Numbered from the stretch's first letter, positions 14,469 to 50,487 are shown. The stretch: 64,000 bases of DNA from an uncultured Veillonellaceae bacterium (GCA_963805085.1 CAWDTA010000001.1:32001-96000), one strand, 5' to 3'. Program-made: numbers and translations. The notes: generated by a model from the letters alone, not told the origin.

Positions 14469-14629
14469 CAAAATACACTAGACTTATTCAAGTTATGTTC
14501 AAACTATTTTAAACAACTATAAAATATACTATCATTATGTTCAAACTTTTATAAACGAAATGATAGTATGTTGCCCTTAAAAGGGTATAATTCATGTAGG
14601 TTCTGTTCAAACTTTTTTACAACGTTACA
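14469..14629 (-). mobile_element. Tn7-like left-end relic (complete; terminus ...ACA at 14629)
   Basis: Three 18-bp repeats TGTTCAAACTWTTWWAMA at 14496, 14538 and 14604, then an 8-bp terminus acgttaca (TGTAACGT on the minus strand); homologous copies elsewhere in the window. Confidence 0.7.
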
Positions 14630-14654
14630 CTTGGGATATAACTATCTCAAGAGG
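14630..14654 (+). repeat. Displaced copy of the distal part of the glmS terminator
   Basis: cttgggatataactatctcaagagg vs cttgggatatactatctcaagagg at 1450-1473 (1-nt indel). Confidence 0.85.
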
Positions 14655-14783
14655 TAGTTTTATTTGATATGCGGCAGTAATTCGTGTGAAAAATAAGAAT
14701 ATTGTTCATTAATTTATATGAGTAATTAATCTGTTTTCAGGAAATGTTTTTCAGTAGCATACAAACATAGCATGCTTCAAAGT

Positions 14784-14849
14784 TCTAAAGGTATAAAAAA
14801 GTTTGACCAGCATTAAATATGTTTGAACACGAATAAAAAAGATTGAACA
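14784..14849 (+). mobile_element. Degenerate Tn7-like right end
   Basis: tctaaagg (TGT->TCT) followed by three inverted 18-bp sites at ~20-bp spacing: tataaaaaagtttgacca, attaaatatgtttgaaca, aataaaaaagattgaaca. Confidence 0.55.
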
Positions 14850-14900
14850 AAATAATTACTTCCATTATATTAAACTTCTTTTAATTCCACTAAAGTAAAA

Positions 14901-14987
14901 GAGTATTTAAATAAGTTCAGGCAAGGCCGAGATGAGATAGAAGAAAGAGTCAAAGCGTGGGTGTCTGAATATCGTAGGAGCCTGTAA
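14901..14987 (+). pseudogene. arsC: 3' remnant of a thioredoxin-dependent arsenate reductase
   Basis: EYLNKFRQGRDEIEERVKAWVSEYRRSL* matches the LMW-PTP-type ArsC C-terminal helix (FRxxRDEI); no 5' part. Confidence 0.65.
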
Positions 14988-15155
14988 GTCCTTTATGAAC
15001 ATCTAATATTGACGACATAAGATGAATGATATATGATTAAAATTGAATATAGTAATAGAATAATTGCATATTATGATATATTAGAGATTGTTCATCTTTG
15101 CTGGGGTAAGTTGCACTAGATGACGGATAGAAAGATTTAGAATTAAGAGGTGGAA

Positions 15156-15521
15156 ATGATGGATATTGTAGAAGTTCTTAAAGCCTTGTCGGATGAAACA
15201 AGAATTCGGATTTTGAACGTATTATACAAAGAAACTTTATGTGTGTGTGATCTAGAAGAAATCTTAGAACTTAGCCAGTCTAATGCCTCAAGGCATCTAA
15301 TAAAATTAAAAAGTGCCAAATTGATTACTAGTGAAAAGCAAGCGCAGTGGGTATATTATCGGGTTGATGAAAAAATACTTGAGAAATATTCTTTTGTAAA
15401 TGAGCTTTTGGCAAAGGAACTGGATAAAAGTCCACAATGCAAAAAAGATTTTGCGCGAATGAAGAAGTACAAAGATCTTGGTGGGAATTGCGAGAACTCA
15501 ATCAAAATTAATAACGAGTAA
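15156..15521 (+). CDS. arsR: ArsR family regulator
   Basis: LKALSDETRIRIL, LCVCDL, SNASRHL; upstream of acr3. Confidence 0.9.
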   Translation: MMDIVEVLKALSDETRIRILNVLYKETLCVCDLEEILELSQSNASRHLIKLKSAKLITSEKQAQWVYYRVDEKILEKYSFVNELLAKELDKSPQCKKDFARMKKYKDLGGNCENSIKINNE

Positions 15522-15606
15522 AAAGTTTAATCAACAAATGAATAAATTCATTTATAGGCATATAATAAAAAGGTGATGCCTATTTAAAATAATGGAGGTA
15601 TGCAAA

Positions 15607-16689
15607 ATGGTAAATGAGAATACACAAACTCCTCAGAAAAAATTATCTTTTTTAGATCGATTTTTAACTCTGTGGATTTTTGTGGCAATGGCTATTGGCG
15701 TTGGGGGAGGTTATTTATTCCCTGGGGTGGCAGCCTGGCTGGAAAATTTCTCAATTGGAGCGACATCAATCCCGATTGCAATCGGTTTAATTGTAATGAT
15801 GTATCCACCATTAGCTAAAGTAAAGTATGAAGAATTAGGGAAAGTGTTTAAAAATCGCAAGGTAGTGACATTGTCGCTTATTCAGAACTGGATAATTGGC
15901 CCGGTATTGATGTTTGTGCTTGCGATCACTTTCTTGGCAGATAAACCTGATTATATGGTTGGTTTAATCCTAATCGGACTCGCACGTTGTATAGCTATGG
16001 TAATTATCTGGAATTCACTTGCTGACGGGGACAATGAATATGCGGCCGCACTGGTGGCGCTTAATTCAATTTTCCAACTGGTATTATATTCAGTGTTTGC
16101 TTATTTCTTCATTACAGTACTTCCGGGGTGGATTGGTTTTGAGGGAATGAAGATCCATGTATCTATGAAGGATGTTGCCATGAGCGTAGCAATCTATCTA
16201 GGAATTCCTTTTGTGGCTGGATTCTTAACTCGGCATTTCTTACTGCCAGCGAAAGGTCGCGAATGGTATGAAAATACTTTCATACCTAAGATTAGTCCTT
16301 TAGCGTTGATTGCTTTACTGTTCACAATTGTGGTGATGTTTTCGCTAAAAGGTGGCTATATTGTGAAGTTGCCAATGGATGTAGTAAGTATTGCGATTCC
16401 TTTGATTATTTATTTTGCAGTTATGTTCTTGGTTTCTTTTTTCATGAGCTGGCGTATAGGTGTTAATTATGAACAAACAACGACACTTTCTTTTACCGCA
16501 GCAAGTAATAATTTTGAACTTGCAATTGCGGTTGCGGTAGCTATGTTTGGTATAAATTCAGGGCAGGCATTTGCCGCAGTTATTGGACCTTTAATTGAAG
16601 TGCCGGTGATGATCGGTTTGGTTAATGTCGCTCTAGGTTTTCGAAAATATTTTGTAGCTCGTGACCAATTAAAAGAAAATGGGGAATAG
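15607..16689 (+). CDS. acr3: Acr3-family arsenite efflux transporter
   Basis: [43 protein letters not shown]. Confidence 0.95.
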
Positions 16690-16716
16690 AGTTAAATGAT
16701 TAAATGTTGATTATAT

Positions 16717-16797
16717 CAGGGGATGGAAGAACTTCGTGCAGAAATGAAATTGGTGTCAGAACCGCGTAATTTTTTGCAGGCAGAGAGTGTATGCTGA
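16717..16797 (+). pseudogene. Second, frameshifted arsC 3' remnant
   Basis: QGMEE ... RNEIGVRT ... RNFL across frames resembles ArsC QGTEEE..RDEIG; usual position directly after acr3. Confidence 0.4.
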
Positions 16798-16846
16798 CCG
16801 GTATAAAAAAGATATTTTGTTGCATTGAATTTTCTATATAAGTTTA

Positions 16847-16897
16847 AACAAAAGGCATATACTGAGATAATTTTTATCTCAGTATATGCCTTTTGTT
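16847..16897. terminator. Long perfect hairpin, probable bidirectional terminator
   Basis: aacaaaaggcatatactgagataa / ttatctcagtatatgccttttgtt. Confidence 0.8.
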
Positions 16898-17187
16898 CAA
16901 AAAATCATGCTATTTAAACTCATTTACGATAGCCTGACAAAGATTATTAACTAATTCAGGAAATGATTAAAAGAATGAGTTTCACATCCGTATTTTCCGT
17001 AATTCAAAATATAAATATTTTGCAATAGCCTGATGAAAAATATTTGTAGATTTGCTAAAAAATATAACAAACGCTGATTTGATAAATGTATATATTCGAG
17101 AAATTATTTATTGAACAAATAGTTTCTTAAAGAAACAGTTGCAAAACACAACTAAATATAGTAAGATGTTATCAAGAGGTGATCTTT

Positions 17188-17631
17188 ATGAAAAACTTTG
17201 ATTTTAGTCAACGTCTTAGAGAAACTACCCGATTGTTAATTCGAAATCTTGGATTTTTAGATAGGACTGAGGCAGTATGCTGTGGCATCACGTTAACCCA
17301 ATGTCATACAATCGTTGAAACGGGTAGAAGGAAGAAAATATCTGTCAATGAGCTATCAGAATTGCTCAACCTTGACAAAAGTACAGTCAGTAGAACGGTA
17401 GACCAGTTAGTGAATAATGACATTTTAGTTCGGCAATCCGATTTGAGTGACCGACGTTATGTCGTGTTACAGCTCACAGGAAAAGGTGAAGAGTTATTTG
17501 CAAACATCGAGCAGCGAGCAGAAGCATACTTTGCAGAAATTATAGATTCAATACCTGAAGAAAAGCGGGAACAGGTGATAGAAAGTTTGCAGCTTTTTTC
17601 AGAAGCAATACACAACAAACGATGTTGTTGA
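17188..17631 (+). CDS. MarR family regulator with vicinal Cys pairs (probably As-responsive)
   Basis: wHTH LDKSTVSRTV..SDRR; EAVCCG..QCH and C-terminal RCC; upstream AGTTG-N7-CAACT palindrome at 17137-17153. Confidence 0.85.
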   Translation: MKNFDFSQRLRETTRLLIRNLGFLDRTEAVCCGITLTQCHTIVETGRRKKISVNELSELLNLDKSTVSRTVDQLVNNDILVRQSDLSDRRYVVLQLTGKGEELFANIEQRAEAYFAEIIDSIPEEKREQVIESLQLFSEAIHNKRCC

Positions 17632-17687
17632 TTCATTTAGGAGGTATAATTGCTGATAAATATAAATGAATGATAGGAGGAAATAGT

Positions 17688-18923
17688 ATGACACAAGATA
17701 TTAGGGAAGATGTGAGAAAAAAATATGCACAGGCTATTACCAATAAGCTAAGTTGTTGCGGCGCTGGGGCATCTCATAATCCAATAACGGGAAACTTATA
17801 TGAATCAGATGAAATTGAGGGATTGCCTGAAGACATCGTCAAGGGATCATTCGGGTGTGGCAATCCAACAGCTCTTGCACAATTACATGCAGGGGAGATA
17901 GTCTTGGATTTAGGCAGCGGTGCTGGGCTTGATGTACTTCTTTCAGCAAAGAGAGTGGGACTCTATGGCAAAGCCTACGGGTTAGATATGACAGATGAAA
18001 TGTTAGCAGTAGCCAAAGAAAATCAGGCTCGTTCTGGAATTACTAATGTAGAATTTTTAAAAGGTCACATAGAAGCCATTCCATTATTAGATAATACAAT
18101 CGATGTAATTATCTCTAATTGTGTTATTAATCTTTCAGGTGACAAAGATAAAGTGTTACAGGAAGGGTATCGTGTGCTAAAACCTGGTGGTAGGTTAGCA
18201 ATATCGGATATTGTATTAACTCGTGCCTTGCCTCCAAGTGTACAAAAAAATCTAACCGCTTGGGCAGGATGTATAGCTGGGGCACTACTTGAAGAAGAAT
18301 ACAAGGAAAAACTTATTTCTGCCGGATTTACAAATATAGAAATAGTACGAACACGGACGTATGAGTTTAGCAAAGAACAAGCAGATGTACTTTTAGCTGA
18401 CCTGTCAGAAACGGAAAGAAAAGATTTAAGTGGTGGTTTAGTAAGTGCTTTTATTCGTGCTAAAAAGCCAGCTGATATGCTTGTCGTAGATGAGGGGTAT
18501 ACGATTCGCACTGCTAAAGACTCTGACTTATCTGCGATTGATAAACTTCTGTCAGAGAACGGATTAACAACCTCTGGTGTACGCGAAAATTTATCGAATT
18601 TTTTAGTAGCTGAATGTGGAGATATTGTAGGCGTTATTGGAATCGAATTTGCTGGACATGGAGTAATGCTAAGATCAATGGCAATTTCCCAAGAGTTAAG
18701 GAAACGTGGTATAGGGGCAACCTTATTTAATCGTTGTCTAGAAATAGTACGTGCTGCAGGGATAAAAGATGCATATCTTTTAACGAATACAGCAGAAAAA
18801 TTTGTAGCTCGTTGGGGATTTCATAAGATACAACGATCAGAAATACCAGCTGACCTTATGCAAAGTTCAACGCTAAATAGTTTTTGCCCGGCATCAAGCA
18901 TTTGCATGAAATTAGAATTATAA
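17688..18923 (+). CDS. arsM: Arsenite methyltransferase fused to an ArsN2-like GNAT acetyltransferase
   Basis: [31 protein letters not shown]; C-terminal GNAT with [24 protein letters not shown]. Confidence 0.88.
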
Positions 18924-19056
18924 AAGAGCTTCTCAAAAAGGAGAACAGTCTATTTTATTTACTGCTTGCAGTATGATATGTACAGCTATTTTATAATAAA
19001 GTAAAGATAAAAAGAAGCCGGGATGAGATTATCCAAAAATCTGTGTAAACATTTAT

Positions 19057-19087
19057 GTTGACCTTTTGAATATATAATTGCTATAAT
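19057..19087 (+). promoter_or_regulatory. Sigma-A promoter
   Basis: TTGACC-N18-TATAAT just upstream of the fluoride riboswitch. Confidence 0.6.
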
Positions 19088-19106
19088 ATATACATATAAT
19101 AATATA

Positions 19107-19184
19107 GGCGATGGAGTTCGCCATTAAGTCCGTTTTATAGCGGTGATGACTCCTACTAGTACACTTTACTAGTAGGAGTCTTTT
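19107..19184 (+). ncRNA. Fluoride (crcB) riboswitch with terminator
   Basis: GGCGATGGAGTTCGCC...GATGACTCCTAC consensus; overlapping terminator gactcctactagt/actagtaggagtc-tttt; crcB downstream. Confidence 0.95.
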
Positions 19185-19212
19185 GTTTTTTAACAGAGAG
19201 AGGAGAGATATT

Positions 19213-19908
19213 ATGAACTACTCAAATGAAGTAATGACAATGTGTAAGGTGGCCAAGGGACCTAATCATGGGGCTGCCCCTATTCCACAAGAAGGACAAT
19301 GGACGAAAGTAAAAGAGGTCAAAGATGTAAGTGGCTTAACTCATGGGGTTGGCTGGTGTGCTCCACAACAGGGTGCCTGTAAATTAACCATAAATGTTAA
19401 AGCTGGAATTATTCAAGAAGCACTAATTGAGACGATTGGTTGTTCAGGTATGACTCATTCAGCTGCGATGGCCTCTGAAATTCTTCCTGGTAAAACAATT
19501 TTAGAAGCTTTAAATACAGATTTAGTTTGCGATGCGATTAATACAGCTATGCGTGAACTTTTTCTTCAAATTGTTTACGGAAGAACCCAAACTGCTTTTT
19601 CTGAAAATGGTTTACCAATTGGAGCAGGCTTAGAAGATCTGGGCAAGGGACTAAGAAGCCAAGTTGGGACTATGTATGGAACTCTTGAAAAGGGTCCAAG
19701 ATATTTAGAATTGGCAGAAGGATATGTTACTAATATTGGATTAGATGAAAATAATGAAATTATTGGTTATAAATTTGTTCATCTTGGTAAAATGATGGAG
19801 ATGATTGCAAAAGGCATGGATGCCAATGAAGCATTAAATAAGGCTTCCGGTAAATATGGACGATTTGATGAATCGGTTAAGGTAATTGATCCAAGACATG
19901 AAAAATAA
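19213..19908 (+). CDS. NifU/IscU-like scaffold-domain protein, usual partner of GGGtGRT
   Basis: GLTHGVGWCAPQQGACKL, ETIGCSGMTHSAAMA, DLVCDAIN. Confidence 0.8.
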   Translation: MNYSNEVMTMCKVAKGPNHGAAPIPQEGQWTKVKEVKDVSGLTHGVGWCAPQQGACKLTINVKAGIIQEALIETIGCSGMTHSAAMASEILPGKTILEALNTDLVCDAINTAMRELFLQIVYGRTQTAFSENGLPIGAGLEDLGKGLRSQVGTMYGTLEKGPRYLELAEGYVTNIGLDENNEIIGYKFVHLGKMMEMIAKGMDANEALNKASGKYGRFDESVKVIDPRHEK

Positions 19909-19924
19909 TAAGGGGGAGAAAAAT

Positions 19925-20926
19925 ATGGTTATGTTTGAAGGCTATGAAAGACGTATCGGTAGTATTAATAAAGTATTGAAACAATATGATATAGAATCGC
20001 TTGAAAGTGCTAAAGAAATCTGTGATAGCAAAGGTATTGATGTACATCAAATTGTCAAAGAAATTCAACCGATTTGTTTTGATAATGCATGTTGGGCGTA
20101 TACTTTTGGAGCCGCGATTGCAATAAAGAAAGGCTATACCAAAGCAACTGAGGTTGCACTGTCATTAGGTGAAGGTTTACAAGCATTTTGTATTCCAGGT
20201 TCGGTTGCTGACAATCGCAAAGTTGGTCTTGGCCATGGAAATCTGGCGGCAATGTTACTCAGTGAAGAAACAAAATGTTTTGCTTTTCTAGCTGGGCATG
20301 AGTCTTTTGCTGCAGCTGAAGGTGCAATTGGTATTGTTAAATCTGCTAATAAAGTAAGAAAACAGCCATTACAAGTTATTCTTAATGGTCTTGGGAAAGA
20401 TGCTGCACAAATTATTTCACGTGTTAATGGATTTACATATGTGCAGACTAAATTTGATTATTACACCAGTAATTTAGAAATAATCAAAGAACTTAAATAT
20501 TCTTCTAGTGAACGAGCAAAAGTTAGGTGCTATGGCGCGGATGACGTTATGGAAGGCGTAGCAATTATGTTTAAAGAAAATGTCGATGTATCAATTACAG
20601 GTAATTCAACAAATCCGACACGGTTTCAACATCCAGTAGCTGGAACTTATAAAAAAGAATGCATCGAACAAGGAAAAAAGTTTTTTTCAGTTGCTTCCGG
20701 TGGTGGAACAGGAAGAACGCTGCATCCTGATAATATGGCAGCAGGACCAGCATCGTATGGTATGACAGATACAATGGGAAGAATGCATTCTGATGCACAG
20801 TTTGCTGGATCATCCTCGGTTCCAGCTCATGTAGAAATGATGGGATTAATTGGCATGGGGAATAATCCTATGGTTGGTGCTAGTGTAGCAGTGGCGGTAG
20901 CGGTTGAAGAAGCATGGAAAAAGTAG
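19925..20926 (+). CDS. GGGtGRT family protein (function unknown)
   Basis: Contains ASGGGTGRTLHPDN, GHESFAAAEGA, TGNSTNPTRFQHPV. Confidence 0.92.
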   Translation: MVMFEGYERRIGSINKVLKQYDIESLESAKEICDSKGIDVHQIVKEIQPICFDNACWAYTFGAAIAIKKGYTKATEVALSLGEGLQAFCIPGSVADNRKVGLGHGNLAAMLLSEETKCFAFLAGHESFAAAEGAIGIVKSANKVRKQPLQVILNGLGKDAAQIISRVNGFTYVQTKFDYYTSNLEIIKELKYSSSERAKVRCYGADDVMEGVAIMFKENVDVSITGNSTNPTRFQHPVAGTYKKECIEQGKKFFSVASGGGTGRTLHPDNMAAGPASYGMTDTMGRMHSDAQFAGSSSVPAHVEMMGLIGMGNNPMVGASVAVAVAVEEAWKK

Positions 20927-20966
20927 CAGTATAAAAATAATTAAATCATCAAAGGGGAAAAATAAA

Positions 20967-21314
20967 ATGCCTAAAATTGCGAGTAAAGCAAAACGATTAA
21001 GCATTTATATTGGTGAAAGTGATCACTATAAACGCCAATCATTATACAAAAGTATTATAGCTAAAACGAAAGAGTTAGATATGGCTGGTGCCACCGTTTT
21101 TAGAGGTATAATGGGATATGGTGCTGATAAACGTATTCATACGGCAAGTTTAGTTGATTTGTCTAGTGATTTACCTGTGTTAATTGAAATTATTGACAGT
21201 GAAGAATATGTTGCAAAATTATTACCCTACTTAGATGAAATAATGGGAAAGGGGTTAGTTACTATTGATGATGTCGAAGTACTCAAATATGGAACTAAGC
21301 CACCAACACGGTAA
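20967..21314 (+). CDS. DUF190 PII-like protein
   Basis: YIGESD, AGATVFRGIMGYG, LSSDLPVLIEIID; adjacent to crcB. Confidence 0.9.
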   Translation: MPKIASKAKRLSIYIGESDHYKRQSLYKSIIAKTKELDMAGATVFRGIMGYGADKRIHTASLVDLSSDLPVLIEIIDSEEYVAKLLPYLDEIMGKGLVTIDDVEVLKYGTKPPTR

Positions 21315-21332
21315 AGGAGAGATCTAGATTAC

Positions 21333-21710
21333 ATGTTAGGAGTTTTTTTAGTCGCAATTGGTGGAGGACTTGGAGCTGTTAGTCGTTATCTGGCATCAAA
21401 TTGGATGGCTTCACGATTCGGTGCCGATTTTCCATATGGAACACTATTAGTCAATGTCATTGGGTGTTTTATTATTGGTTTATTTATGGCAATGACTATA
21501 GATCGCTTAAATATTAGTCCTTACTGGCGATTGTTTATTACTGTAGGATTTTTAGGCGGTCTTACGACCTTCTCCTCTTTTAGCTATGAAACTTTACACC
21601 TTTTACAGGAAGCTGACGTTATGCGTGCATTTTATAATGTCGGACTTAATTTATTTGGTGGATTTTTCGCTACATGGTTAGGCTTTGGAGTTGCTAGGCT
21701 TATTGGGTGA
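21333..21710 (+). CDS. crcB: Fluoride channel Fluc/CrcB
   Basis: GGGLGAVSRY, PYGTLLVN, GFLGGLTTFSSFSYE. Confidence 0.97.
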   Translation: MLGVFLVAIGGGLGAVSRYLASNWMASRFGADFPYGTLLVNVIGCFIIGLFMAMTIDRLNISPYWRLFITVGFLGGLTTFSSFSYETLHLLQEADVMRAFYNVGLNLFGGFFATWLGFGVARLIG

Positions 21711-21964
21711 TTATCTTAATCACCTACTGCTAGAATGATCATGTTTTAAAGATGAGGTAAAATTACAAAGTTGTCAGAAATTTTAACTTTGTGTCTATCT
21801 TTTCTTGATATTTCCAGTGAAAATGTTTTCTCAATGTCCGTTATTTACGGAATAGTTCATAATCCAGTAAAATTTTATTAATTGACAAGTATAGGGAAAA
21901 GTGATAACATAGCTTTTGAAATAAATAAATTTTATTTCATCATACAAATGAATAATAGTATTGA

Positions 21965-22119
21965 GACAGGTGCCCGTGAGGGCTTAATAGGGAAATCGGT
22001 TAAATGCCGATGCGGTCCCGCCACTGTAATAGGGAGCGATTCCAAGAAATGCCACTGGAGGTTTTACCTCTGGGAAGGTTTGGAGGAGCGATGATCTAAA
22101 GCCAGGAGAACTGCCTGTT
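21965..22119 (+). ncRNA. Cobalamin riboswitch 1 (cbiK leader)
   Basis: AGGTG..AATAGGGAA..CCCGCCACTGT..GGGAAGG..AGCCAGGAGAACTGCC; promoter TTGACA-17-TAACAT at 21882; terminator 22192-22228. Confidence 0.95.
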
Positions 22120-22269
22120 AAAAAGTCACCGTTATGTACCTGCGAGCGATGGGGATGGGGATTAAATAGATATATTTTTTGATATCTAAATAAGCCTTTT
22201 TTGCTATGCAGAAAAGGCTTATTTTTTTATATTTATACTAGTATAATAAAATATTTAGGAGGAAATCGA

Positions 22270-23304: not shown

Positions 23305-23321
23305 TTAGAGAGAAAATTTGC

Positions 23322-23520
23322 TGTAATGCCAACGCGGTCCCGCCACTGTAATAGGGAGCGAATCCAAGATATACCATTGAAACATTTGTTTTGAGAAGGT
23401 TTGGATAAGCAATGAATTAGACTATTTTTCTAGACTATTTTTTAATGTCGAGATTTTTATTTTTACATTGGTATATCATACTTAATTAGCCTCTTTTTGC
23501 GCTCGGCAGAAAGAGGTTTT
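23322..23520 (+). repeat. Doubly deleted copy of a cobalamin riboswitch plus terminator
   Basis: Near-identical to 27183-27282 and ~27354-27452, but lacks the 5' AGGTG..AATAGGGAA segment and the B12 box. Confidence 0.85.
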
Positions 23521-23668
23521 TATTATAATTTGGTAGACCTTGTATCTGAAAATAGAGTATAGCTAAAAATAAAGTGTGAAGAAAGCATTGGTAGAGATAA
23601 ATATATTTGAATTTTTATCTAATATAAAATCCTTATTTTACTAAAAACTCTTTTTTTTTGTTTATTTC

Positions 23669-23696
23669 GTGTTACTATTTAAATAATTAGTAGCAC
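23669..23696 (+). promoter_or_regulatory. Probable NikR operator
   Basis: GTGTTAC-N14-GTAGCAC inverted repeat directly upstream of nikR. Confidence 0.65.
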
Positions 23697-23709
23697 AAAG
23701 GAGAAGAAA

Positions 23710-26200: not shown

Positions 26201-26201
26201 C

Positions 26202-41336: not shown

Positions 41337-41391
41337 AAATTTTTGCTTTAAGTTATTTTGGTTATACAATGAAAGAATAGGGGGATGTTTT

Positions 41392-42018: not shown

Positions 42019-42425
42019 AACTTCGTAATTTAAGGACGAATCGGAGTCCTAAATTAATGATTATTCCGATGATTGACATTATCTTTTTTCTGTTGGTGTT
42101 TTTTATGATGAGTACGCTCTATATGATCGAGCAACATACTATTCCCATTCACTTGCCTTATGCGACTACACAAAAGATACAAACAGAAAGCAGTATTTCC
42201 ATTACTGTATTGCCAAGTGGAAAAATCCTATTTGAAAATGAAGAAGTAGCTTTAGCCACATTTGGACAGCGGGCAAAAATCGAATTGAGTAAAAATAAAG
42301 ACATTGCCTTTGTGCTAAGAGCAGATCAACAAACAGAATATGGCAAAGTAGTAGCCACATTAGATGAATTAAAATTAGCCGGTGTTAGTAAGATCGCCAT
42401 TGCCACAGAGCGAAAGGATCGATAG
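42015..42425 (+). CDS. exbD: ExbD/TolR
   Basis: IIPMIDIIFFLLVFFM, LRAD. Confidence 0.92.
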   Translation: MKLRNLRTNRSPKLMIIPMIDIIFFLLVFFMMSTLYMIEQHTIPIHLPYATTQKIQTESSISITVLPSGKILFENEEVALATFGQRAKIELSKNKDIAFVLRADQQTEYGKVVATLDELKLAGVSKIAIATERKDR

Positions 42426-42428
42426 ACA

Positions 42429-43136
42429 ATGCTTGAAAGATTACGCTGGCAAAAAGCGACTTGTATTTCATTCTTAGCGCATGGTGTTTTTTTGCTTTTC
42501 ATTTTTTATATGACGAATTTTGTTTTTGCAGATCAAAAAAGTGAAGAGTATACAGAGGTTGTTTTGGTTAAAGATGAACAAGAATTAGAACATCCAGTAG
42601 TGAAGTCTGAACTAGAACAGCAAATGAGTGATACTTCAATGATAGGGCAGCAAAAGCAACAAGAGCAAAGTAAAGTGATAGAACCTTCATTGCAAACTGC
42701 AGATGGCACAGCGAAGGTAGCGGCGGCAATTGGTGGGGATATTGCTATACAAGCAGTAGGAACTGGTAATGGAAAGGGTTCGGCAAGCAGAGATAACGGT
42801 AGTGGGAATAATAGCGAGGGAAAGGCGGGCAATGGCACCGCCTCAGCGGTAGATCAAAGTAGCCCAGCTAAACGTATAACAGCGACAAAACCAAACTACC
42901 CTGAACGCGATAGACGGCAAAATAGAGAAGGGACAGTAACACTTGGCTTTACTGTTTTAGCTGATGGCGAAGTTAGCAATGTTGAAATTTTAAGCTCTGA
43001 TTGTAGTGAGGCTATGAATCAAGCGGCTATTCATTGTGTAGAAGAGTGGCAATATACACCAGCGCGAGATTCTACTGGACAGGCTATAGCGTATTATAAA
43101 AAAGCAAAAGTAACGTTCGATCTTGAAAATCAATAA
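42429..43136 (+). CDS. tonB: TonB energy transducer
   Basis: TM S..AH, low-complexity linker, PNYPERDRRQNREGTV C-terminal domain. Confidence 0.9.
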   Translation: MLERLRWQKATCISFLAHGVFLLFIFYMTNFVFADQKSEEYTEVVLVKDEQELEHPVVKSELEQQMSDTSMIGQQKQQEQSKVIEPSLQTADGTAKVAAAIGGDIAIQAVGTGNGKGSASRDNGSGNNSEGKAGNGTASAVDQSSPAKRITATKPNYPERDRRQNREGTVTLGFTVLADGEVSNVEILSSDCSEAMNQAAIHCVEEWQYTPARDSTGQAIAYYKKAKVTFDLENQ

Positions 43137-43147
43137 ATTAGATTAGG

Positions 43148-44113
43148 ATGTCGATAATGTTAGAACTTGTAAATTTGTCGAATTACTGTATGGATACAGA
43201 ACAACTCATTGATAATAAAAAAGAAAACCTAGAAAAATTTTTAAAAGATAATCAACTAGATGGCATTGAAATGATGTTTTGCCAGCCGTGGGACAAGTCA
43301 TTACATGAGGAAAAATTCATCCAAGGAGTACACTTAAATTTTTGTCCGAGTTGGTTAGAGTTTTGGCGTGGTGATTTAAAAAGCGTTGAAGAACAATTGG
43401 GCAGCCGAGAAGCTATTGTTCAATGTTATGGCGGCTTAACCAGAAAAGACTGGTTAGAGAGCTACCGAGAAAACATTGTAAATGCAAGACAGACAAATGC
43501 CAAATATTTTGTATTCCACGTCAGTCATGCGCGTACGAATGAAGTTTTTGATTGGGAATTTCGCGCGAGTAGTGAAGAGGTCATTGATGCTACGATTCAA
43601 CTGGTAAATGAATTAGCTCCAGAGATACCGGAAGATATGATGTTGTTGTTCGAAAATCTCTGGTGGCCTGGCTTAACCTTATTAGATAAACGATTAGCTA
43701 AAAAATTAATCAATAATGTCAATCATAACAATGTTGGGATTATGCTTGATACAGGTCATCTGATGAATACGAATCAACAGTTAAAGAACCAAGAAGAAGC
43801 TGTTGATTATGTGATAAATATAGTAGAAAATTTAGGAAAATATCGTAAGTATATTAAGGGTGTGCATCTACATTATTCATTATCAGGTGAATATGTTTTA
43901 AATAGTATAAAAAAAGCTAGTTGCAAAAAAACAACAAGTGGTGAGATTATGGAACATATCCTTAAAATTGACGAACATTTGCCGTTTACAACACCAAAAG
44001 TTAAACGTATTATTGAATATATTCAACCAGAAATTTTAGTACATGAATTTATGCAAAGTACACGGGAAGATTGGCAAAACAAACTTAACATGCAAAAGCA
44101 AGCATTGAAGTGA
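43148..44113 (+). CDS. AP-endonuclease-2 / xylose-isomerase-like TIM-barrel metalloenzyme (CbiR-like)
   Basis: VHL, FHVSH, FENLWWPG, LDTGHLMN, VHLH, DEHLPF, VHEF; inside the B12 uptake operon. Confidence 0.7.
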   Translation: MSIMLELVNLSNYCMDTEQLIDNKKENLEKFLKDNQLDGIEMMFCQPWDKSLHEEKFIQGVHLNFCPSWLEFWRGDLKSVEEQLGSREAIVQCYGGLTRKDWLESYRENIVNARQTNAKYFVFHVSHARTNEVFDWEFRASSEEVIDATIQLVNELAPEIPEDMMLLFENLWWPGLTLLDKRLAKKLINNVNHNNVGIMLDTGHLMNTNQQLKNQEEAVDYVINIVENLGKYRKYIKGVHLHYSLSGEYVLNSIKKASCKKTTSGEIMEHILKIDEHLPFTTPKVKRIIEYIQPEILVHEFMQSTREDWQNKLNMQKQALK

Positions 44114-44122
44114 GGCTAAGAC

Positions 44123-45055
44123 ATGGTAAAACGTAGTATTCTATGGATTCTTATAGTATTAGTGAGTGGACTACTTAGTGGCTGTAACATGGATACGCCC
44201 AGAGAAAAAACAACAGCTGCTTATGAAGTCGTTGATAGTCAAGGTACAGTAATAAAGCTGGACAAAAAGCCACAACATATCGTTTCGCTTACCTTATGTA
44301 GTGATGAGATTTTGTTATCATTAATAGATAAAAATCGTCTTGCATCTTGCACATCGCGAGCTACAGATCGTGGTATCTCTAATGTAGCTGAGCAAGCACA
44401 GGATGTACCAAAGTTAAGTAGTAAAAGTATTGAAGCCATTATTGCATTGCAGCCAGATCTCGTGATTGCCGCAGATTGGCTGCCTGTAGAATTAATTGAA
44501 AGCTTAAGAGAAGTGGGACTGAACGTATATGCTTATAAGACACCAAGTACAATCACTGAGGTAGAATCTTTAGTTGAAGAATTTAGTAAAGTCGTAGGTG
44601 AGACAGAAAAAGGGATAGCTATTGTCAAAGAAATGGATGAAGTACTAACGAAAGTACAAGATGACGTAAAGCAAATTCTTCAAGACAAACGCAAAGTTGT
44701 TATGGCACTGTCCTTTATGGGGTGTTATGGTGGTAAAGGCAGTATACTGGATGACATTGATAAAAACGCTGGGGTTATCAACGGTGCGGTTCTTGCGGGG
44801 TTAGGAAAAAATGATACGCTAGCTAAAGAACAAATGGTTGCCATCAATCCTGATGTTATTATGGTGCCAACTTGGGATTATGAAGGTAAAGACACAGAGA
44901 AGTTTAAACAAGATATATTGAACGATCCAGCACTATCTACGATCAAAGCCGTTAAAAATAAACGACTTATTCAAGTCGCTGATAAATATACATATTGTAC
45001 GTCACAATATGTCGTATATGGCGTAAGAGATTTAGCGAAAGCAGTGTATAAGTAA
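44123..45055 (+). CDS. Second BtuF-like substrate-binding lipoprotein
   Basis: Lipobox LSGC, KPQHIVSL; paralog of 35994-36938. Confidence 0.85.
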   Translation: MVKRSILWILIVLVSGLLSGCNMDTPREKTTAAYEVVDSQGTVIKLDKKPQHIVSLTLCSDEILLSLIDKNRLASCTSRATDRGISNVAEQAQDVPKLSSKSIEAIIALQPDLVIAADWLPVELIESLREVGLNVYAYKTPSTITEVESLVEEFSKVVGETEKGIAIVKEMDEVLTKVQDDVKQILQDKRKVVMALSFMGCYGGKGSILDDIDKNAGVINGAVLAGLGKNDTLAKEQMVAINPDVIMVPTWDYEGKDTEKFKQDILNDPALSTIKAVKNKRLIQVADKYTYCTSQYVVYGVRDLAKAVYK

Positions 45056-45065
45056 TAAAGTATTC

Positions 45066-45201
45066 TCAAAAGATGCTGAATGTATCTAGGTTATGTGCAA
45101 ACTAATTTAAACAGTTATAAAATAAATTAGAAATACGCCATCATTTTGTTCAAAGTTTTATAAACAAAATGATGGCGTATTGACTTTAAAAGGATATGAT
45201 T
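45066..45201 (-). mobile_element. Internal part of a Tn7-like left end (terminus missing)
   Basis: 18-bp sites at 45094 and 45147; clearly homologous to ~50315-50450; ends at taaaaggatatgatt. Confidence 0.65.
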
Positions 45202-45343
45202 GAATTACTATTCAATACGTATTTCTGTATTTGAAAGTTTCGGCTAACGCCTAAAATCTAGTGGTCATGATTTCAGCTTGGCAGGAGTTTTGTCTCCTAA
45301 TGATAAACGATACATCCGTCTGGACTACAATTGCATAAGGAAA

Positions 45344-45381
45344 ATATTTACAATAGTTTTACATAAAACTATTGTAAATAT
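45344..45381. promoter_or_regulatory. Perfect inverted repeat, probable MarR operator
   Basis: atatttacaatagtttta-ca-taaaactattgtaaatat immediately before the MarR fragment start. Confidence 0.6.
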
Positions 45382-45630
45382 ATGAATGAAAAGTATATTA
45401 TAAGTTTAATCGATGGAATACATAACCAAACTAGTAAATTTATTGAAAATGAGTTGAAGAAACACAAGATCGGAGGAATAGCAACTTCGCATGGTGATAT
45501 TTTATTTCAGTTTTACAAAAACGAATTTCTTACAATGCGACAGTTAGCAAAATTGATAAACAGCGATAATTCTACTGTGACAGTGTTGGTTGATAAGGTG
45601 GTAAAGTATGGATATATTAGCAAGACGCTG
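45382..45630 (+). pseudogene. Truncated MarR regulator, in frame with the downstream permease
   Basis: ATSHGDIL, LTMRQLAKLI..STVTVLVDKVVKYGYISK; the wing and C-terminal helices are absent. Confidence 0.65.
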
Positions 45631-45684
45631 GATGTTCAGCTGCTAGAGTATACAATTTATCGGTTACACAGAAAGGAGAGTATT

Positions 45685-46344
45685 TTGGGTGGCACTATTT
45701 TGATAAAAATTGTAGATTATTTTTCTAATAATATGGATGCTTATCTAATTTCTATACAAGAGCATATAGGGATTAGCTTATTGGCATTAATGGCTGCCAT
45801 TATAATTGGAATTCCTTGCGGATACGCTTGCGTAAAGCATAAGAAATACGAGAAGTGGATTATATCTATTTTTCAGGTATTGCGAATTATTCCAAGTTTG
45901 GCGGTTTTAATACTACTAATTCCGATTATGGGGACAGGGATCAAGCCAGCAATGACAGCATTAGTTTTGTTAGCAGTTCCACCAATTCTTATGAACACAA
46001 TTGTGGGATTAGAAGAAGTACCTGATTTTATGATAGAAACAGCTTATGGAGTTGGAATGACAGATCGACAAGTATTATGGAAAGTCAAGTTCCCTTTGGC
46101 TACGTCCTTAATTCTAGCCGGAATCAAGACAGCTATGATTGAAATTATTGCCAGTGCGACACTGGCGGCCAAAATAGGGGCAGGAGGACTGGGTGGCATA
46201 ATTTTTACTGGTTTAGGCTTAGATCGAATTGATTTGCTTTTGGTTGGAGGTATTTCGGTTGCAGTGCTAGCGATTGTAGCCGGATTATTGCTTGAACTGA
46301 TAGATAGAGTGTTGCTGAAATATAAATACATAAGAAAGTGGTAA
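45685..46344 (+). CDS. Osmoprotectant ABC permease (OpuCB/ProW-like)
   Basis: AAGGAG RBS plus TTG 45685; IIPSLAVL, ETAYGVGMT, IGAGGLG. Confidence 0.88.
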   Translation: MGGTILIKIVDYFSNNMDAYLISIQEHIGISLLALMAAIIIGIPCGYACVKHKKYEKWIISIFQVLRIIPSLAVLILLIPIMGTGIKPAMTALVLLAVPPILMNTIVGLEEVPDFMIETAYGVGMTDRQVLWKVKFPLATSLILAGIKTAMIEIIASATLAAKIGAGGLGGIIFTGLGLDRIDLLLVGGISVAVLAIVAGLLLELIDRVLLKYKYIRKW

Positions 46345-46351
46345 TGGAAAA

Positions 46352-47245
46352 ATGAAAAAAAGAATGAAACTGTTGATAACAGCATTTATTGTTATGGTGC
46401 TGGCACTATCTATGACAGCATGTGGCAGTAATAGTAAGAACACAACGATTCGTGTTGGAACAAAAGATTTTACTGAAAATTTAGTTGTTGGAGAATTGTA
46501 TGCATTAGCCTTAGAAGGCGCTGGATATAAGGTAGAAAGAGTTCCAAATATCGCAGGTTCCGTAATTCATACGTCTCTTGTAAGCAATAAAATTGATTTG
46601 TATCCTGAATATACTGGTACTGGACTATTAGCAGTTCTCAAGATGAAGCCCCTTACAAACTCAAATGAAGTTTACCAGACTGTAAAAGATGGCTACGAAA
46701 ACCAATTTCAAATTACGTGGTTACAATACTCAAAAGCCAATGATGGGCAAGGTCTTGTTATTCGTACAGAGGTAGCAAAAAAACTTGGGATTACTACGAT
46801 TTCAGATTTACAGAAGCATGTAAGTGAGCTTAGGTTTGCATCACAAGGTGAGTTTGACCAAAGAGATGACGGAATTCCAGCATTAAAAAAAGTATATGGA
46901 GATTTTAATTGGAAATCATCAAAGGTATATGATAATGGGTTAAAATATGAGGTGCTGAAAAATAATGAAGCAGATGTTGCACCATCGTATACAACGGAGG
47001 GACAATTAGTCAATACAAATGAATTTACCTTGCTGGAAGATGATAAACATGTATGGCCGCCTTATAATTTGGCTCCAGTTATTCGTGATAATGTGTTAGC
47101 GGCTCATCCTGATATTGCTGACGTTATAAATAAAGTAAGTGCTACCTTAGATACAAAAACTCTTACAGCACTAAATGCAAAAGTTGATGTTGATAAAAAA
47201 GAATATGAAAAAGTAACAAAAGAGTATTACGACTCAATTAAATAG
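46352..47245 (+). CDS. Osmoprotectant ABC substrate-binding lipoprotein (OpuCC/OsmF-like)
   Basis: MTAC lipobox, GTKDFTE, YPEYTGT, RDDG, WPPY. Confidence 0.9.
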   Translation: MKKRMKLLITAFIVMVLALSMTACGSNSKNTTIRVGTKDFTENLVVGELYALALEGAGYKVERVPNIAGSVIHTSLVSNKIDLYPEYTGTGLLAVLKMKPLTNSNEVYQTVKDGYENQFQITWLQYSKANDGQGLVIRTEVAKKLGITTISDLQKHVSELRFASQGEFDQRDDGIPALKKVYGDFNWKSSKVYDNGLKYEVLKNNEADVAPSYTTEGQLVNTNEFTLLEDDKHVWPPYNLAPVIRDNVLAAHPDIADVINKVSATLDTKTLTALNAKVDVDKKEYEKVTKEYYDSIK

Positions 47246-47265
47246 TTGAATGCGAGGAGGATACT

Positions 47266-48036
47266 ATGTCTCATAAGGCGATAGAATTTAGTAATGTATC
47301 TAAAAATTTTGATAATACCGGGTATAATGCTGTGGATCATGTGAGCCTTGCCATTGAAGAAGGGGAGTTTATTACGATACTAGGCTCTTCAGGGGGTGGA
47401 AAAACTACCTTGCTCAAAATGATTAATCGTTTATATGAGCCCACTGAAGGGACAATTATGTTATTTGATGAAGACATTAGAGCGGTGGATGCGGTTAAGT
47501 TAAGAAGACGTATAGGCTATGTAATTCAGCAGGTGGGGCTATTCCCTCATATGAAAATAGCCGAGAATATTGCGATTGTACCAAACCTTTTAAAATGGAG
47601 TAAAGAGAAAATTGATGCGAGAGTTGATGCATTGTTAACTCTCGTAGGACTTGAACCGCAAAAATTTAAGGAACGGTATCCGTCACAACTATCCGGTGGA
47701 CAGCAACAAAGAATTGGACTTGCTAGAGCATTAGCAATTGATCCTAAGATTATGTTGCTCGATGAGCCTTTTGGAGCAATTGATGCAATCAATCGGATGA
47801 AATTACAAGAGGAGTTACTCTGTATTCATGGTGGACTAAAAAAGACCTTTTTATTTGTCACACATGATATCAATGAAGCATTTAAACTGGGAACCAGAGT
47901 GATTATTATGAACGAGGGTAGAATATGTCAATTTGATACCCCGAGAAATATCGCGAAAAATCCGGTAGATGATTTCGTAACTTCTCTAATAACCTCTTCG
48001 CGAGAGCAGGGACGTTTCTGGGGGGAATTTGCTTGA
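47266..48036 (+). CDS. Osmoprotectant ABC ATPase (no CBS domains)
   Basis: GSSGGGKTT, IGYVIQQVGLFPH, LSGGQQQR, DEPFGA. Confidence 0.9.
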   Translation: MSHKAIEFSNVSKNFDNTGYNAVDHVSLAIEEGEFITILGSSGGGKTTLLKMINRLYEPTEGTIMLFDEDIRAVDAVKLRRRIGYVIQQVGLFPHMKIAENIAIVPNLLKWSKEKIDARVDALLTLVGLEPQKFKERYPSQLSGGQQQRIGLARALAIDPKIMLLDEPFGAIDAINRMKLQEELLCIHGGLKKTFLFVTHDINEAFKLGTRVIIMNEGRICQFDTPRNIAKNPVDDFVTSLITSSREQGRFWGEFA

Positions 48037-48641
48037 TAGTATATGCGATGAACTATTCAGATAAATTAGGTAAGGCGCTATTTGAGCATCTAGAAATCGT
48101 AGTAATTACACTGATAATTTCCCTTCTATTGGCATCCGTATTAACGATATTTGCTATACGTTCAGAAAAACTATCAAAAGTACTAATACATATGTTTGCG
48201 GTTATTTATTCCATACCCAGCTTAGCGCTTTTTGCCATGTTGATTCCGGTGACTGGCCTGGGGAAAGTCACCGCCATAACGGTTTTGGTTGTTTACAATC
48301 AATATTTATTGCTGCAGAGTTTTATTGCGGGGTTAAATGAAGTAGATCCTGCTATCATTGAAGCAGCTACTGGTATCGGTATGAGTACTATGCAGATACT
48401 TTTTAAAGTAAGGCTGCCGTTGTCTAAGAGAGCACTCTTTGCTGGGGTACGCCTTGCAGTGGTTTCTACCATTGGCATTGCAACGATTGCTGCATTCATC
48501 AATGCAGGAGGTCTCGGCAATATTTTATTTGATGGACTTCGCACGATGAATGTTTACAAAATACTTTGGGGAAGTACGTTAGCAGCGGGGCTGGCAATAG
48601 GTGTCAATGCTCTATTAAGTAAAATTGAACAAATGCTATAA
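48033..48641 (+). CDS. Osmoprotectant ABC permease (OpuCD-like)
   Basis: SIPSLALF, EAATGIGMS, INAGGLG. Confidence 0.9.
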   Translation: MIVYAMNYSDKLGKALFEHLEIVVITLIISLLLASVLTIFAIRSEKLSKVLIHMFAVIYSIPSLALFAMLIPVTGLGKVTAITVLVVYNQYLLLQSFIAGLNEVDPAIIEAATGIGMSTMQILFKVRLPLSKRALFAGVRLAVVSTIGIATIAAFINAGGLGNILFDGLRTMNVYKILWGSTLAAGLAIGVNALLSKIEQML

Positions 48642-48821
48642 GAATATAAAGCTGTTGAACTAGCTAGGAAAGGGCCGATTGAAGAGCTTCAATGACTATT
48701 TTATTAAAGAAGTATAAAGGGAAAAGCTTCAAGTTCAATGCTGAGTAGTATTGTACTTGAAATTAATATTGAACGGTGACAATACAAAAGCACACTGAAC
48801 TGAACTATTAAAAACGGACAG

Positions 48822-48877
48822 TGACAAATAACCCCCTTCGTAGTTTTATTCTCCTACGAAGGGGGGGATTTTGTCAT
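48822..48877. terminator. Strong hairpin between convergent units
   Basis: tgacaaataacccccttcgtag ... ctacgaaggggggattttgtca. Confidence 0.65.
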
Positions 48878-48955
48878 TACCTTAGGCGATATTCAAAAAT
48901 GAGAGGCTTTTCTTAGTTAGAGAGGTTTCACAAAATACAGTAGGTCGATGAGCAC

Positions 48956-49435
48956 TCATTTTAGAATAAGGCGGGTTTGTTTACTTCTGTCCACTTTTGT
49001 AGGGTAGATATAACCAATCAAATGAAATTGATTGACAAGTGTGTCAAAATCAATAGAAGATTTTACAAAAGTACCATCTTTATTGGGTATTTCATAAACG
49101 ATATGGTCTGCAGTAACTTCACAGACTATGCCGACTGATACTTCCTGATTGACATTTTTCCATAAAATAATTGCTCCTGCCTGAGCGTCTCTAGGAGCTG
49201 TCTTTTCTATCCATTCAAATTGAGCAGCATTAGAAAACCAGTCCTCAGCATCGCCATTCCAATTCATTCCCGGGACAGGCGCTGTTTTATCAAATTCTTG
49301 TGCAATATAGCCAAGAGTTTGGCTTGGAAGATGCTTGTACCATGGGCTGGCGTCAGGATTACAGTCGCAAGCTAATACGGTGACAGGTATCAATAATGTT
49401 AAAAATAGTAAATAATAAAAACTGATCTTTTTCAA
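48956..49435 (-). CDS. Exported CHAP-like protein lacking catalytic Cys/His
   Basis: Signal peptide; WNGDAEDW..A, P..AGAIILW, VGIVCEV, GYIYP pattern; QT where QC is expected and VSV where GHV is expected. Confidence 0.55.
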   Translation of the reverse strand: MKKISFYYLLFLTLLIPVTVLACDCNPDASPWYKHLPSQTLGYIAQEFDKTAPVPGMNWNGDAEDWFSNAAQFEWIEKTAPRDAQAGAIILWKNVNQEVSVGIVCEVTADHIVYEIPNKDGTFVKSSIDFDTLVNQFHLIGYIYPTKVDRSKQTRLILK

Positions 49436-49487
49436 AAATTCGTCACCTCCATTTAGTCAATAATTTTAATCATCGAGAATCGGTGTA

Positions 49488-50084
49488 TTATAATAAAGAG
49501 TCGATTAGCTGGGAGAAACCATCCAATGAAGCATCATTCGTCAGATGAATTCCATTGATGAAAAAAGCTGGAGTGTTGTGAAACCCTAGATTATTTTCTT
49601 CATCAATATTGTTTTTGATGTTTTGTTCGATTGTGGGATCGGCCAGATCACGATTCAATTGATCCTTCTCTGCTTGCGATAAATTGAGTTTGTCCACTAA
49701 ATACTGCAGTCCGCTATTGCCATTTTTAAAAACTGGTTGTTCAGCCATGGCGAAATCATAGAATTTCCAGGCTTTCTCTTCATTTTGCCTAGAAAGAGCT
49801 TCAAAAACTTGTGCAGCAGACATCGCAAATGGGTGAGTGGCATGAGGATAGTGCTTTAATTTTAACTGGACTTTGCCATCATATTTATCTAATACTTGAT
49901 CGACCAGTTTTTTTGCTTGGGCACAATCGGGACATTGAAAATCGACGTATTCGACAATTGTAATAGGTGCCAATGGGGTGCCACGAGTGGCCTGTGCCGA
50001 TACGGTGGACAAATTCGTACCATAATAAGTCATGATCATGAAGATCAGCATGACTTTTGCAATTTTGTAGACAAATTTTCGCAT
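49488..50084 (-). CDS. DsbA/BdbD-family thiol-disulfide oxidoreductase
   Basis: Signal peptide, EYVDFQCPDC, TPAFFING. Confidence 0.88.
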   Translation of the reverse strand: MRKFVYKIAKVMLIFMIMTYYGTNLSTVSAQATRGTPLAPITIVEYVDFQCPDCAQAKKLVDQVLDKYDGKVQLKLKHYPHATHPFAMSAAQVFEALSRQNEEKAWKFYDFAMAEQPVFKNGNSGLQYLVDKLNLSQAEKDQLNRDLADPTIEQNIKNNIDEENNLGFHNTPAFFINGIHLTNDASLDGFSQLIDSLL

Positions 50085-50314
50085 TGTTTTTCTCCTTACT
50101 GTATTGAAAATCAAATAGTGTTTATTTGCTGTTAAAGCTAGTATAATACTGACGTTTTGCCGGTACATGTTCCTCGATTGGTTTCAGTATGTAAAGCTAG
50201 TAACATTATAAAAGGAGTCATACTCATTTAAAAGAGCATTCCTCTCGTAAAATTTGTAATTAGTAATATTCTTATTTACTAATTATACTTAATTTGTACT
50301 AAAAAGCAAATTCC

Positions 50315-50487
50315 TCAAAATATGCTTGATTTACCTAGGTTATGTCCAAACTATTATAAACAGCTATAAAATAAATTAGAAATACGCCATCAATTTGTTT
50401 AAAGCTTTATAAACAAAATGATGGTGTATTGACCTTAAAAGGATATAATTCATGTAGTTTTTGCTCAAACTTTTTTACAATGTTACA
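50315..50487 (-). mobile_element. Tn7-like left-end relic (complete; terminus ...ACA at 50487)
   Basis: 18-bp sites at 50343, 50396 and 50462; terminus atgttaca (TGTAACAT). Confidence 0.7.

Follow-up and report, generated by a model that had tools for sequence, protein, structure and literature searches.

Probable Tn7-like end relics along a cargo island downstream of glmS in an uncultured Veillonellaceae bacterium

Four left-end copies and one right-end relic

The stretch of an uncultured Veillonellaceae genome analyzed here (GCA_963805085.1, CAWDTA010000001.1:32001-96000), which spans 64,000 nucleotides and is referred to as the window, opens with the 3' part of glmS (positions 3 to 1418, plus strand). 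The encoded protein has two SIS domains (E = 8e-60) and shares 94% amino acid identity with the GlmS of a comparison genome, G004. Downstream of this first gene are four copies of a repeat-bearing element (c1 to c4), putative left ends of Tn7-like transposons, together with one inverted cluster of repeats that resembles a right end. Tn7 has TGT...ACA ends, with TnsB sites set apart from one another at the left end and close together at the right end, and it inserts after glmS with the right end proximal. An earlier reading of the window (the sequence-only reading) had described an island of serial Tn7-like insertions downstream of glmS. The location downstream of glmS stands, but the first copy does not adjoin the gene, since c1 lies 13 kb downstream of its end.

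As read from the sequence, a hairpin followed by a T run lies at 1449 to 1480 (plus strand). Its stem, ACCTCTTG...CAAGAGGT, is also found 3' of glmS in relatives that have no Tn7 repeats (loci L026 and L027), and this copy is therefore the native glmS terminator.

All four copies are on the plus strand and point away from glmS. Two of them are complete: c1 (14457 to 14629), with direct repeats at 14495 to 14516, 14537 to 14558, and 14603 to 14624, and c4 (50304 or 50314 to 50487), with repeats at 50342, 50395, and 50461. Both have the tip ...GTTACA, and in each the three repeats are spread over ~130 nt in a spaced layout. In the c3 copy (45065 to 45201), which has two repeats (at 45093 and 45146), the last ~40 nt are missing and the tip with them, while c2 (26982 or 26993 to 27044) consists of only the terminal 52 to 63 nt of a left end, with one repeat (27019 to 27040) and the tip ...ACTACA. 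The c4 copy is the last recognizable Tn7-type end in the chain. The four copies in one orientation, the three spaced repeats of the complete copies, and the ACA at the end of three of them had all been described in the sequence-only reading and were recovered at or near the positions given there; the repeat unit, which had been put at 18 bp, is ~20 to 22 nt. As also proposed, the gene map places each copy at a boundary between functional modules.

The copies are most alike between c3 and c4 (89%, 121/136) and between c2 and c4 (87%, 45/52), followed by c1 and c4 (83%, 134/161) and c1 and c3 (81%, 100/123). Differences of 11 to 19% are as would be expected for separate elements and not for a recent internal duplication. 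In alignments, c1, c2, and c4 all terminate in ...TACA, and the similarity between copies breaks off at exactly that base.

A blastn search of all five contigs of the genome (4.21 Mb) found the copies at these four places only. A weight matrix built solely from the window's nine left-end repeats gave clusters of at least three hits at c1, the inverted cluster, and c4 and nowhere else in the genome; a further 15 clusters consist of two weak hits each. The four-copy pattern is far beyond chance, because the blastn matches are limited to four places and the clusters of three or more hits are limited to the island. A scattered repeat or miniature inverted-repeat transposable element was considered and ruled out, as there are only four copies and all are inside the island.

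The inverted cluster (14784 to 14860, minus strand) contains three packed repeats ~20 nt apart, which are inverted relative to the left ends and point toward glmS; its tip has decayed to TCT. The three abutting repeats earlier placed at 14784 to 14849 are real. Two were hit by the matrix on the minus strand (14789 and 14829), and the middle site was identified by eye only.

The key to this part of the window is a genome of the same genus, G001. There, glmS and its terminator are followed by ~25 nt, here called X, and then by TGTAGCAG, which carries three packed repeats. Window positions 14784 to 14860 are homologous to this right end, which lies immediately behind the glmS terminator, a relationship found by the comparison of glmS-downstream regions suggested beforehand. 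Between the right end and the single left end of G001 is cargo that is 91 to 94% identical to window positions 5650 to 12215. That left end is 86% identical to c4 and 80% identical to c1, and it is followed by ACA and then CTTGG and the 3' half of the terminator, as is c1. G001, too, is without tns genes. The comparison identifies the inverted cluster of the window as a right end and c1 as a left end that abuts glmS-terminator DNA.

The DNA between c1 and the arsenic genes beyond it can be read against the same genome. The tip of c1 abuts positions 14630 to 14687 (plus strand), where the 3' half of the glmS terminator is present for a second time together with ~30 nt that include X; this DNA is 91% identical over 58 nt to the part of G001 that separates the glmS terminator from the right end. 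X is followed by TGT in both genomes, as TGTAGCAG in G001 and as TGTGAAAA at 14688 in the window. Read by eye, the next 96 nt (14688 to 14783, plus strand) begin with TGTG where the right end of G001 begins; they gave no hit to the weight matrix and are possibly, though uncertainly, a further decayed right-end tip. Behind the right-end relic is a 37-codon open frame (14874 to 14984 or 14987, plus strand), which the sequence-only reading had taken for a truncated arsC. It aligns with positions 107 to 128 of 129 (the last 22) of arsC_pI258_fam (E = 0.082, weak) and with residues 119 to 141 of 144, the C-terminal helix of a low-molecular-weight phosphatase, in 8p5n_A (E = 0.14, weak), the latter outranked by an unrelated top hit (E = 0.049). 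A remnant of the 3' end of an arsC of the thioredoxin type, with the low-molecular-weight phosphatase fold, is thus a plausible but weak assignment.

Intact and decaying elements in relatives

When c4 was used as the query, matches were found in 7 of 61 related genomes, its own included, and in 8 genomes of a 301-genome sample of the class, in which two candidates per genome were scored. One match, in a genome of another family (G043), is 81% identical and forms the far end of an intact Tn7-like element. This element begins 24 nt after the glmS stop codon with TGTAGCG, four packed repeats, and a terminator hairpin. It continues with tnsA (279 amino acids [aa]; PF08722, 6e-17), tnsB (726 aa; Mu-transpos_C), tnsC (561 aa; AAA_22/TniB), and tnsD (626 aa; PF15978, E = 4e-99), followed by cargo that comprises an OLD-family ATPase-nuclease, a C5 methylase, and a further open reading frame (ORF). 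The distal end has three spaced repeats and terminates in ...CGCTACA, and the element is flanked on both sides by AAAAT, a 5-bp target duplication. Directly past it is a relic right end and then the glmS terminator, so that serial use of the site is visible there.

The search for an intact tnsABCD element among relatives, which had been proposed as a check on the Tn7-end interpretation, thus found one next to glmS with TGT and ACA tips and a duplicated AAAAT. Together with the right end of G001, it supports that interpretation; the repeat is not scattered through the genome, and its homologue borders a tns-containing element beside glmS. It is therefore very probable, as judged from sequence comparison, that the four repeats are left ends of Tn7-like elements of the TnsA/TnsB/TnsC/TnsD type, that 14784 to 14860 is a right end, and that the island was formed by serial insertion and decay. 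The 22-nt repeats are predicted to be bound by TnsB, and the ends to function in transposition.

Other relatives retain parts of such elements. In G027, a left-end homologue lies 13 to 24 kb from tniQ, a fused tnsA-tnsB gene (891 aa), and tnsC, with Wadjet genes between. On the side of the left end where the tns genes lie, neither the matrix nor a search for a 5-nt duplication plus TGT found a right end, the latter over ~40 kb within a stretch of ~46 kb. The same genome also has a stray piece of glmS (G027:C1:2778501-2778638; L079, 12502 to 12639), which comprises the last 44 codons (82% identical) and their own terminator and lies 2 Mb from the real glmS with no tns genes within 10 kb; pieces of the target site therefore do get duplicated in this group. 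TnsD is encoded in 6 of 201 class genomes sampled.

Further evidence for serial insertion comes from G050 (L073 to L075; G050:C12:128000-171000), in which a proximal glmS-tnsA-tnsB-tnsC-tnsD module is followed 35 kb on, and on the same strand, by a tnsD and a tnsC of reduced length that are not preceded by tnsAB. The cargo between the modules includes ArsP, MarR, and restriction genes, one of them for a type IIG enzyme. This arrangement is an intermediate stage of the serial-insertion process, and the repeated use of the glmS site that had been proposed for the window is thus seen directly in two relatives, G043 and G050. G001 also has a divergent additional glmS (50% identical), behind which, in the last 600 nt before a contig end (L080; G001:C31), two relic right ends stand in tandem; both have TGT, three packed repeats, and a terminator hairpin. 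Packed repeats of the right-end type were also seen by eye directly 3' of glmS in at least 3 of 30 glmS-downstream regions (L023, L034, and L048).

Tn7 of Escherichia coli at attTn7 and the G043 element share TGT and ACA tips, spaced left and packed right repeats, a 5-bp duplication, the tnsABCD gene order, and TnsD-directed entry after glmS with the right end nearest the gene. The window has the ACA tips, the asymmetric repeat layout, the location, and the orientation, whereas a target duplication and tns genes are found in G043 and not in the window. The window differs from E. coli Tn7 in that the ends alone remain, the repeat sequence is different, and a long hairpin lies at the middle repeat of the left end; right ends of the G043 type, unlike that of E. 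coli Tn7, are often directly followed by a terminator hairpin. The insertion points implied also vary. The junction between X and TGT suggests one ~88 nt after the glmS stop codon (the right end of G001), and CTTGG in the flank of c1 would be a second at ~34 nt, compared with 24 nt in G043.

Island building by Tn7-like elements has precedents. Parks and Peters reportedly described in 2007 genomic islands that arise when Tn7-like elements insert in tandem at an attachment site. The general properties of Tn7 are partly confirmed in two publications (PMC11014353 and PMC2918618), the first of which describes target immunity, remnants, and multiple insertions in the Tn6022/AbaR islands of Acinetobacter baumannii. 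The window is like tandem-insertion islands in its reused attachment site, decayed elements, end remnants, and cargo for metal resistance and transport. It is unlike the Acinetobacter islands in its low-G+C diderm host and in having lost all tns genes while two complete left ends remain, and its left ends have survived far better than its right ends, which also sets it apart from tandem-insertion islands. The catalogue of Benler et al. (2021; PMC8649781) covers Tn7-like elements with defense and other cargo in Firmicutes. The OLD-family nuclease, methylase, and Wadjet genes of the G043 and G027 elements agree with it. The elements of that survey were delimited via tns genes, and a chain made of ends only would escape it. 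Island building by repeated Tn7-like insertion at an attachment site is thus already published, and the host group is the new setting.

Insertion history and competing explanations

The sequence of events that most likely produced the window is as follows. TnsD would aim elements of this family at the DNA just after glmS, where they would enter with the right end toward the gene, and a later element would enter between glmS and an earlier one. Deletions would then take out the tns genes along with most right ends and portions of two left ends, and the residue would be a chain of cargo modules (metal and arsenic, cobalt and B12, and an osmolyte transporter) parted by left-end relics. Direct comparison shows what the ends are, how they are oriented with respect to glmS, the lack of tns genes, and the intermediate stages in relatives. 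The number and order of the insertions, and the share of the chain that was assembled here or in earlier hosts, we infer.

The tns genes that the sequence-only reading had taken to be deleted, or possibly to act in trans, were found nowhere in the genome. Searches by protein family across the genome turned up no TniQ, TnsA, Mu-transpos_C, or TnsD, and none of the seven Tns proteins of G043 and G027 had a tblastn match in it at E ≤ 0.001. Three rve hits lie on other contigs and have no likeness to the TnsB of G043 in tblastn. The tns genes are likely, but not proven, to be absent from the genome, and without them the chain would be unable to move by itself.

Several observations weigh against the account of serial insertion and decay or limit it. 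As regards the missing tns genes, the searches for TnsA and Mu-transpos_C were also silent in all 14 control genomes and are weak when taken alone, and the genome is rated 83% complete. No pair among the window's ends shares a 5-nt target duplication: the flanks are CTTGG (c1), GTTAA (c2), and TGCAA (c4), with AAAGT before the right-end relic, and no single insertion is therefore reconstructable. There is one right-end relic versus four left ends, and the continuation of c1 into the 58-nt second copy of the terminator 3' half and X is not the product of a simple insertion. In G001, the flank of the right end (X) and that of the left end (CTTGG) do not match, and its two ends are therefore not from one simple insertion. 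The G+C content gives no contrast (36.5 to 37.3% for the modules versus 37.4% for the genome).

The wider gene order adds to these difficulties. In G004, the genes for a PBP_like regulator and a Glu_synthase-family protein are adjacent, while here they are ~61 kb apart (window 5590 and C1:98771); the loci compared were L062 (G004:C7:3520000-3539999) and L065 (G000:C1:96001-104000). The break in gene order relative to G004 extends from about window position 5650 to C1:98770, ~16 kb past c4, which suggests that the right border of the island would lie beyond the window. G019 has a different neighborhood altogether. Parts of the chain also recur elsewhere. A contig of G092 (L061, G092:C167:1-3988), a draft genome of another family with 4% contamination, is 95 to 97% identical to window positions 44699 to 48673, including the truncated c3, and contigs from soil metagenomes with 90 to 99% likeness bridge c3 (X1 record 4 and X2 record 11) and c4 (X2 record 14). 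The c3 and c4 junctions are therefore either old enough to be shared or moving as blocks.

Two further observations concern these junctions. The G092 contig may reflect a recent transfer or belong to an organism like the window's own. One metagenome contig (X4) joins position 45165, in the c3 hairpin, to 50416, in the c4 hairpin, and leaves out 5,250 nt, as recombination between left-end relics would do; the shorter side of the join is 29 nt, and it may be an artifact.

That all the cargo loads accreted in this lineage at this site is a reconstruction: a chain of cargo with ends is present, but no pair of ends shares a duplication, and the c3 and c4 junctions recur elsewhere. As a conjecture, the inferred ancestor may have arisen when a chromosome with an element already in place after X received a further insertion in the terminator, with recombination between two similar right ends, or with the DNA of a relative, as the next step.

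An alternative that we hold to be possible, though unlikely, is that the ends are indeed Tn7-like but the chain of multiple ends was wholly or mostly built in earlier hosts and entered this lineage in one or two large blocks, by composite transposition between the outermost working ends or by homologous recombination with the DNA of a relative, instead of through four insertions at this glmS. Such an import would explain the likeness of the G092 contig across the truncated c3 and the metagenome contigs that bridge c3 and c4, and the lack of duplication pairs fits it as well. The G001 genome has a c1-type end only, with its B12 receptor module behind a different gene and without c2, and the gene order of G004 sets the block between the regulator and the Glu_synthase-family gene. 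However, c1 abuts a piece of the genus's own glmS terminator, which requires at least one insertion at such a glmS site. In addition, the contig from G092 is short as well as draft and contaminated and may come from an organism like the window's own, and the metagenome contigs may be from close relatives that inherited the island.

The terminator stretch that occurs twice raises a different alternative, namely, that the repeats are arm-type sites beside att cores and that a tyrosine or serine recombinase added the modules by site-specific integration into the glmS terminator. The two occurrences (25 to 58 nt; 1452 to 1480 and 14630 to 14687) are like att duplications, and the terminator is itself an imperfect inverted repeat. 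But Pfam scanning of 58 ORFs found no transposase, integrase, resolvase, or Tns domain, and a core-like duplicate is present at the c1 junction only, with c2 and c4 followed by unrelated sequence that has no copy of the core. The similarity that breaks off exactly at ACA, and the homologous end that borders tnsABCD with a 5-bp duplication in G043, also speak against it. This reading, which we rate as next to negligible, was rejected on the strength of the missing recombinase domain and the G043 end, and serial Tn7-like insertion followed by decay is retained.

The left-end hairpin and the cargo modules

A feature that the sequence-only reading had not described is a 19- to 21-bp hairpin in every full left end (14526 to 14569 in c1, 45132 to 45181 in c3, and 50381 to 50430 in c4), with the middle repeat falling within its loop and the inner part of its stem. 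When ten sequences drawn from seven genomes were aligned, 96.3% of the cells paired, and both sides had changed in 4 of the 19 pairs. None of 500 shuffles matched the observed pairing or covariation score, while 8 of 500 matched the number of doubly changed pairs; since the aligned sequences are related, these controls overstate significance. Sliding the partner by 1 to 3 columns lowered pairing to 34 to 57%. Compensatory changes in the outer stem are plain. The stems have stabilities of -19 to -30 kcal/mol, with fold z-scores of -5.4 to -8.7.

Eight of the ten sequences could be scored for their 12-nt tails, which contain 4 to 9 T on the minus strand versus 2 to 5 on the plus strand and are richer in T on the minus strand in seven of the eight. 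Such tails fit a terminator that faces transcription from the left-end flank. A simple scan for consensus terminators flagged none of the left-end hairpins, and we put the chances at about even that the hairpin would halt transcription that enters the element from that flank. A terminator hairpin is also found right behind five of the seven right ends or relics examined (the intact element and the relic of G043, L048, and the two in L080), those of G001 and the window being without one, and these terminators fit the idea of an insulated element. As for an outward promoter in the left end, 3 promoter-like sites were found versus 2.5 expected, none of them convincing.

An exact-pattern scan of genome contigs for the hairpin core found three loci, with Dendrosporobacter and Massilibacillus among the titles. 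An exact match to the core in an Enterobacter record (L078, 2001 to 2037) was set aside as a chance match to an ordinary palindromic terminator without transposon repeats.

The conserved hairpin might suggest a host cassette with a regulatory or terminator role, or a small nonautonomous repeat that has nothing to do with transposon ends, kept between operons for the hairpin itself. Its compensatory changes and the position of the copies between operons agree with this, as do three genomes (G053, G023, and G006) that retain the hairpin part alone, without the other repeats and with no tns genes in the 20 to 35 kb fetched around each hairpin. A cassette of this kind is nevertheless highly improbable, given that the 4.21-Mb genome has only four copies, all in one island and one orientation, that the full copies have three TnsB-type repeats and an ACA tip, as does the intact G043 element, and that the simple terminator scan flagged none of them.

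A more speculative proposal, which we consider improbable, is that the left-end hairpin and the terminator hairpin that many right ends have on their inner side form a built-in pair of transcriptional insulators that would shield the transposon from host read-through, and that the relics are kept because the host uses them. If this were true, the relics could insulate operons or act as decoys that bind transposase and so give the glmS site target immunity against related elements that arrive later, and it would explain why left ends remain at the borders of modules after the loss of right ends and tns genes.

The relics part a series of modules. Nearest to glmS, genes for a molybdate-type ABC transporter and a PBP_like/HTH regulator (1584 to 5590, plus strand; Pfam) occupy the place that X and the right end have in G001 and have no match in that genome. 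The regulator gene (4640 to 5590) has a counterpart that is 80% identical in amino acid sequence downstream of the G004 glmS and looks native. The cargo up to c1 (6065 to 14384, plus strand; Pfam and NCBIfam) encodes DUF134, NifB-like and ParA-type Fe-S proteins, a metallo-beta-lactamase fold, DUF1847, a methyltransferase, an ArsP permease, ArsR, and an ArsE-like thioredoxin.

The next stretch, from the right-end relic to c2 (15150 to 26969, plus strand), contains ArsR-ACR3, MarR with a methyltransferase-GNAT protein, a fluoride riboswitch with GGGtGRT, DUF190, and CrcB, and cobalamin riboswitches with CbiK and NikR-CbiMNQO. The c2-c3 cargo (27132 to 45055, plus strand) comprises two cobalamin riboswitches, TonB-dependent receptors, methylmalonyl-CoA mutase with MeaB, a FecCD-type ABC transporter, and ExbB-ExbD-TonB, and the c3-c4 cargo (45382 to 50168) comprises an OpuA-type ABC transporter on the plus strand and a DsbA-like protein and a 159-aa ORF on the minus strand. 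The host is a low-G+C diderm, with LpxB, TonB receptors, and ExbBD present.

Rfam has no family for the left-end repeat and returned riboswitches only. Those for cobalamin (21951 to 22132, 23315 to 23453, 27132 to 27314, and 29959 to 30140) head the cobalt and B12 modules, and the fluoride riboswitch (19098 to 19162) is followed by a 241-aa ORF with a weak NifU-like match and then by the GGGtGRT, DUF190, and CrcB genes. Beyond c4, a single 1,674-aa frame (53425 to 58449) contains HMA_2 and hydrolase domains and a complete second P-type ATPase (Cation_ATPase_N, E1-E2, and Cation_ATPase_C); it may be two P-type ATPases fused or two genes read through. An M-box riboswitch (62671 to 62847) lies close to the end of the window.

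Serial insertion and decay of Tn7-like elements would account for a stretch of ~49 kb of metal, arsenic, cobalt and B12, and osmolyte genes after glmS in little-studied diderm Firmicutes, and it would extend the island-building process of Tn7 to that group. Because ends alone are left, gene-based transposon finders miss the island, which makes it a worked example of what such tools pass over. The ends, repeats, and hairpin are concrete sequences that bear on end recognition, target immunity, and transcriptional insulation in this family of elements.

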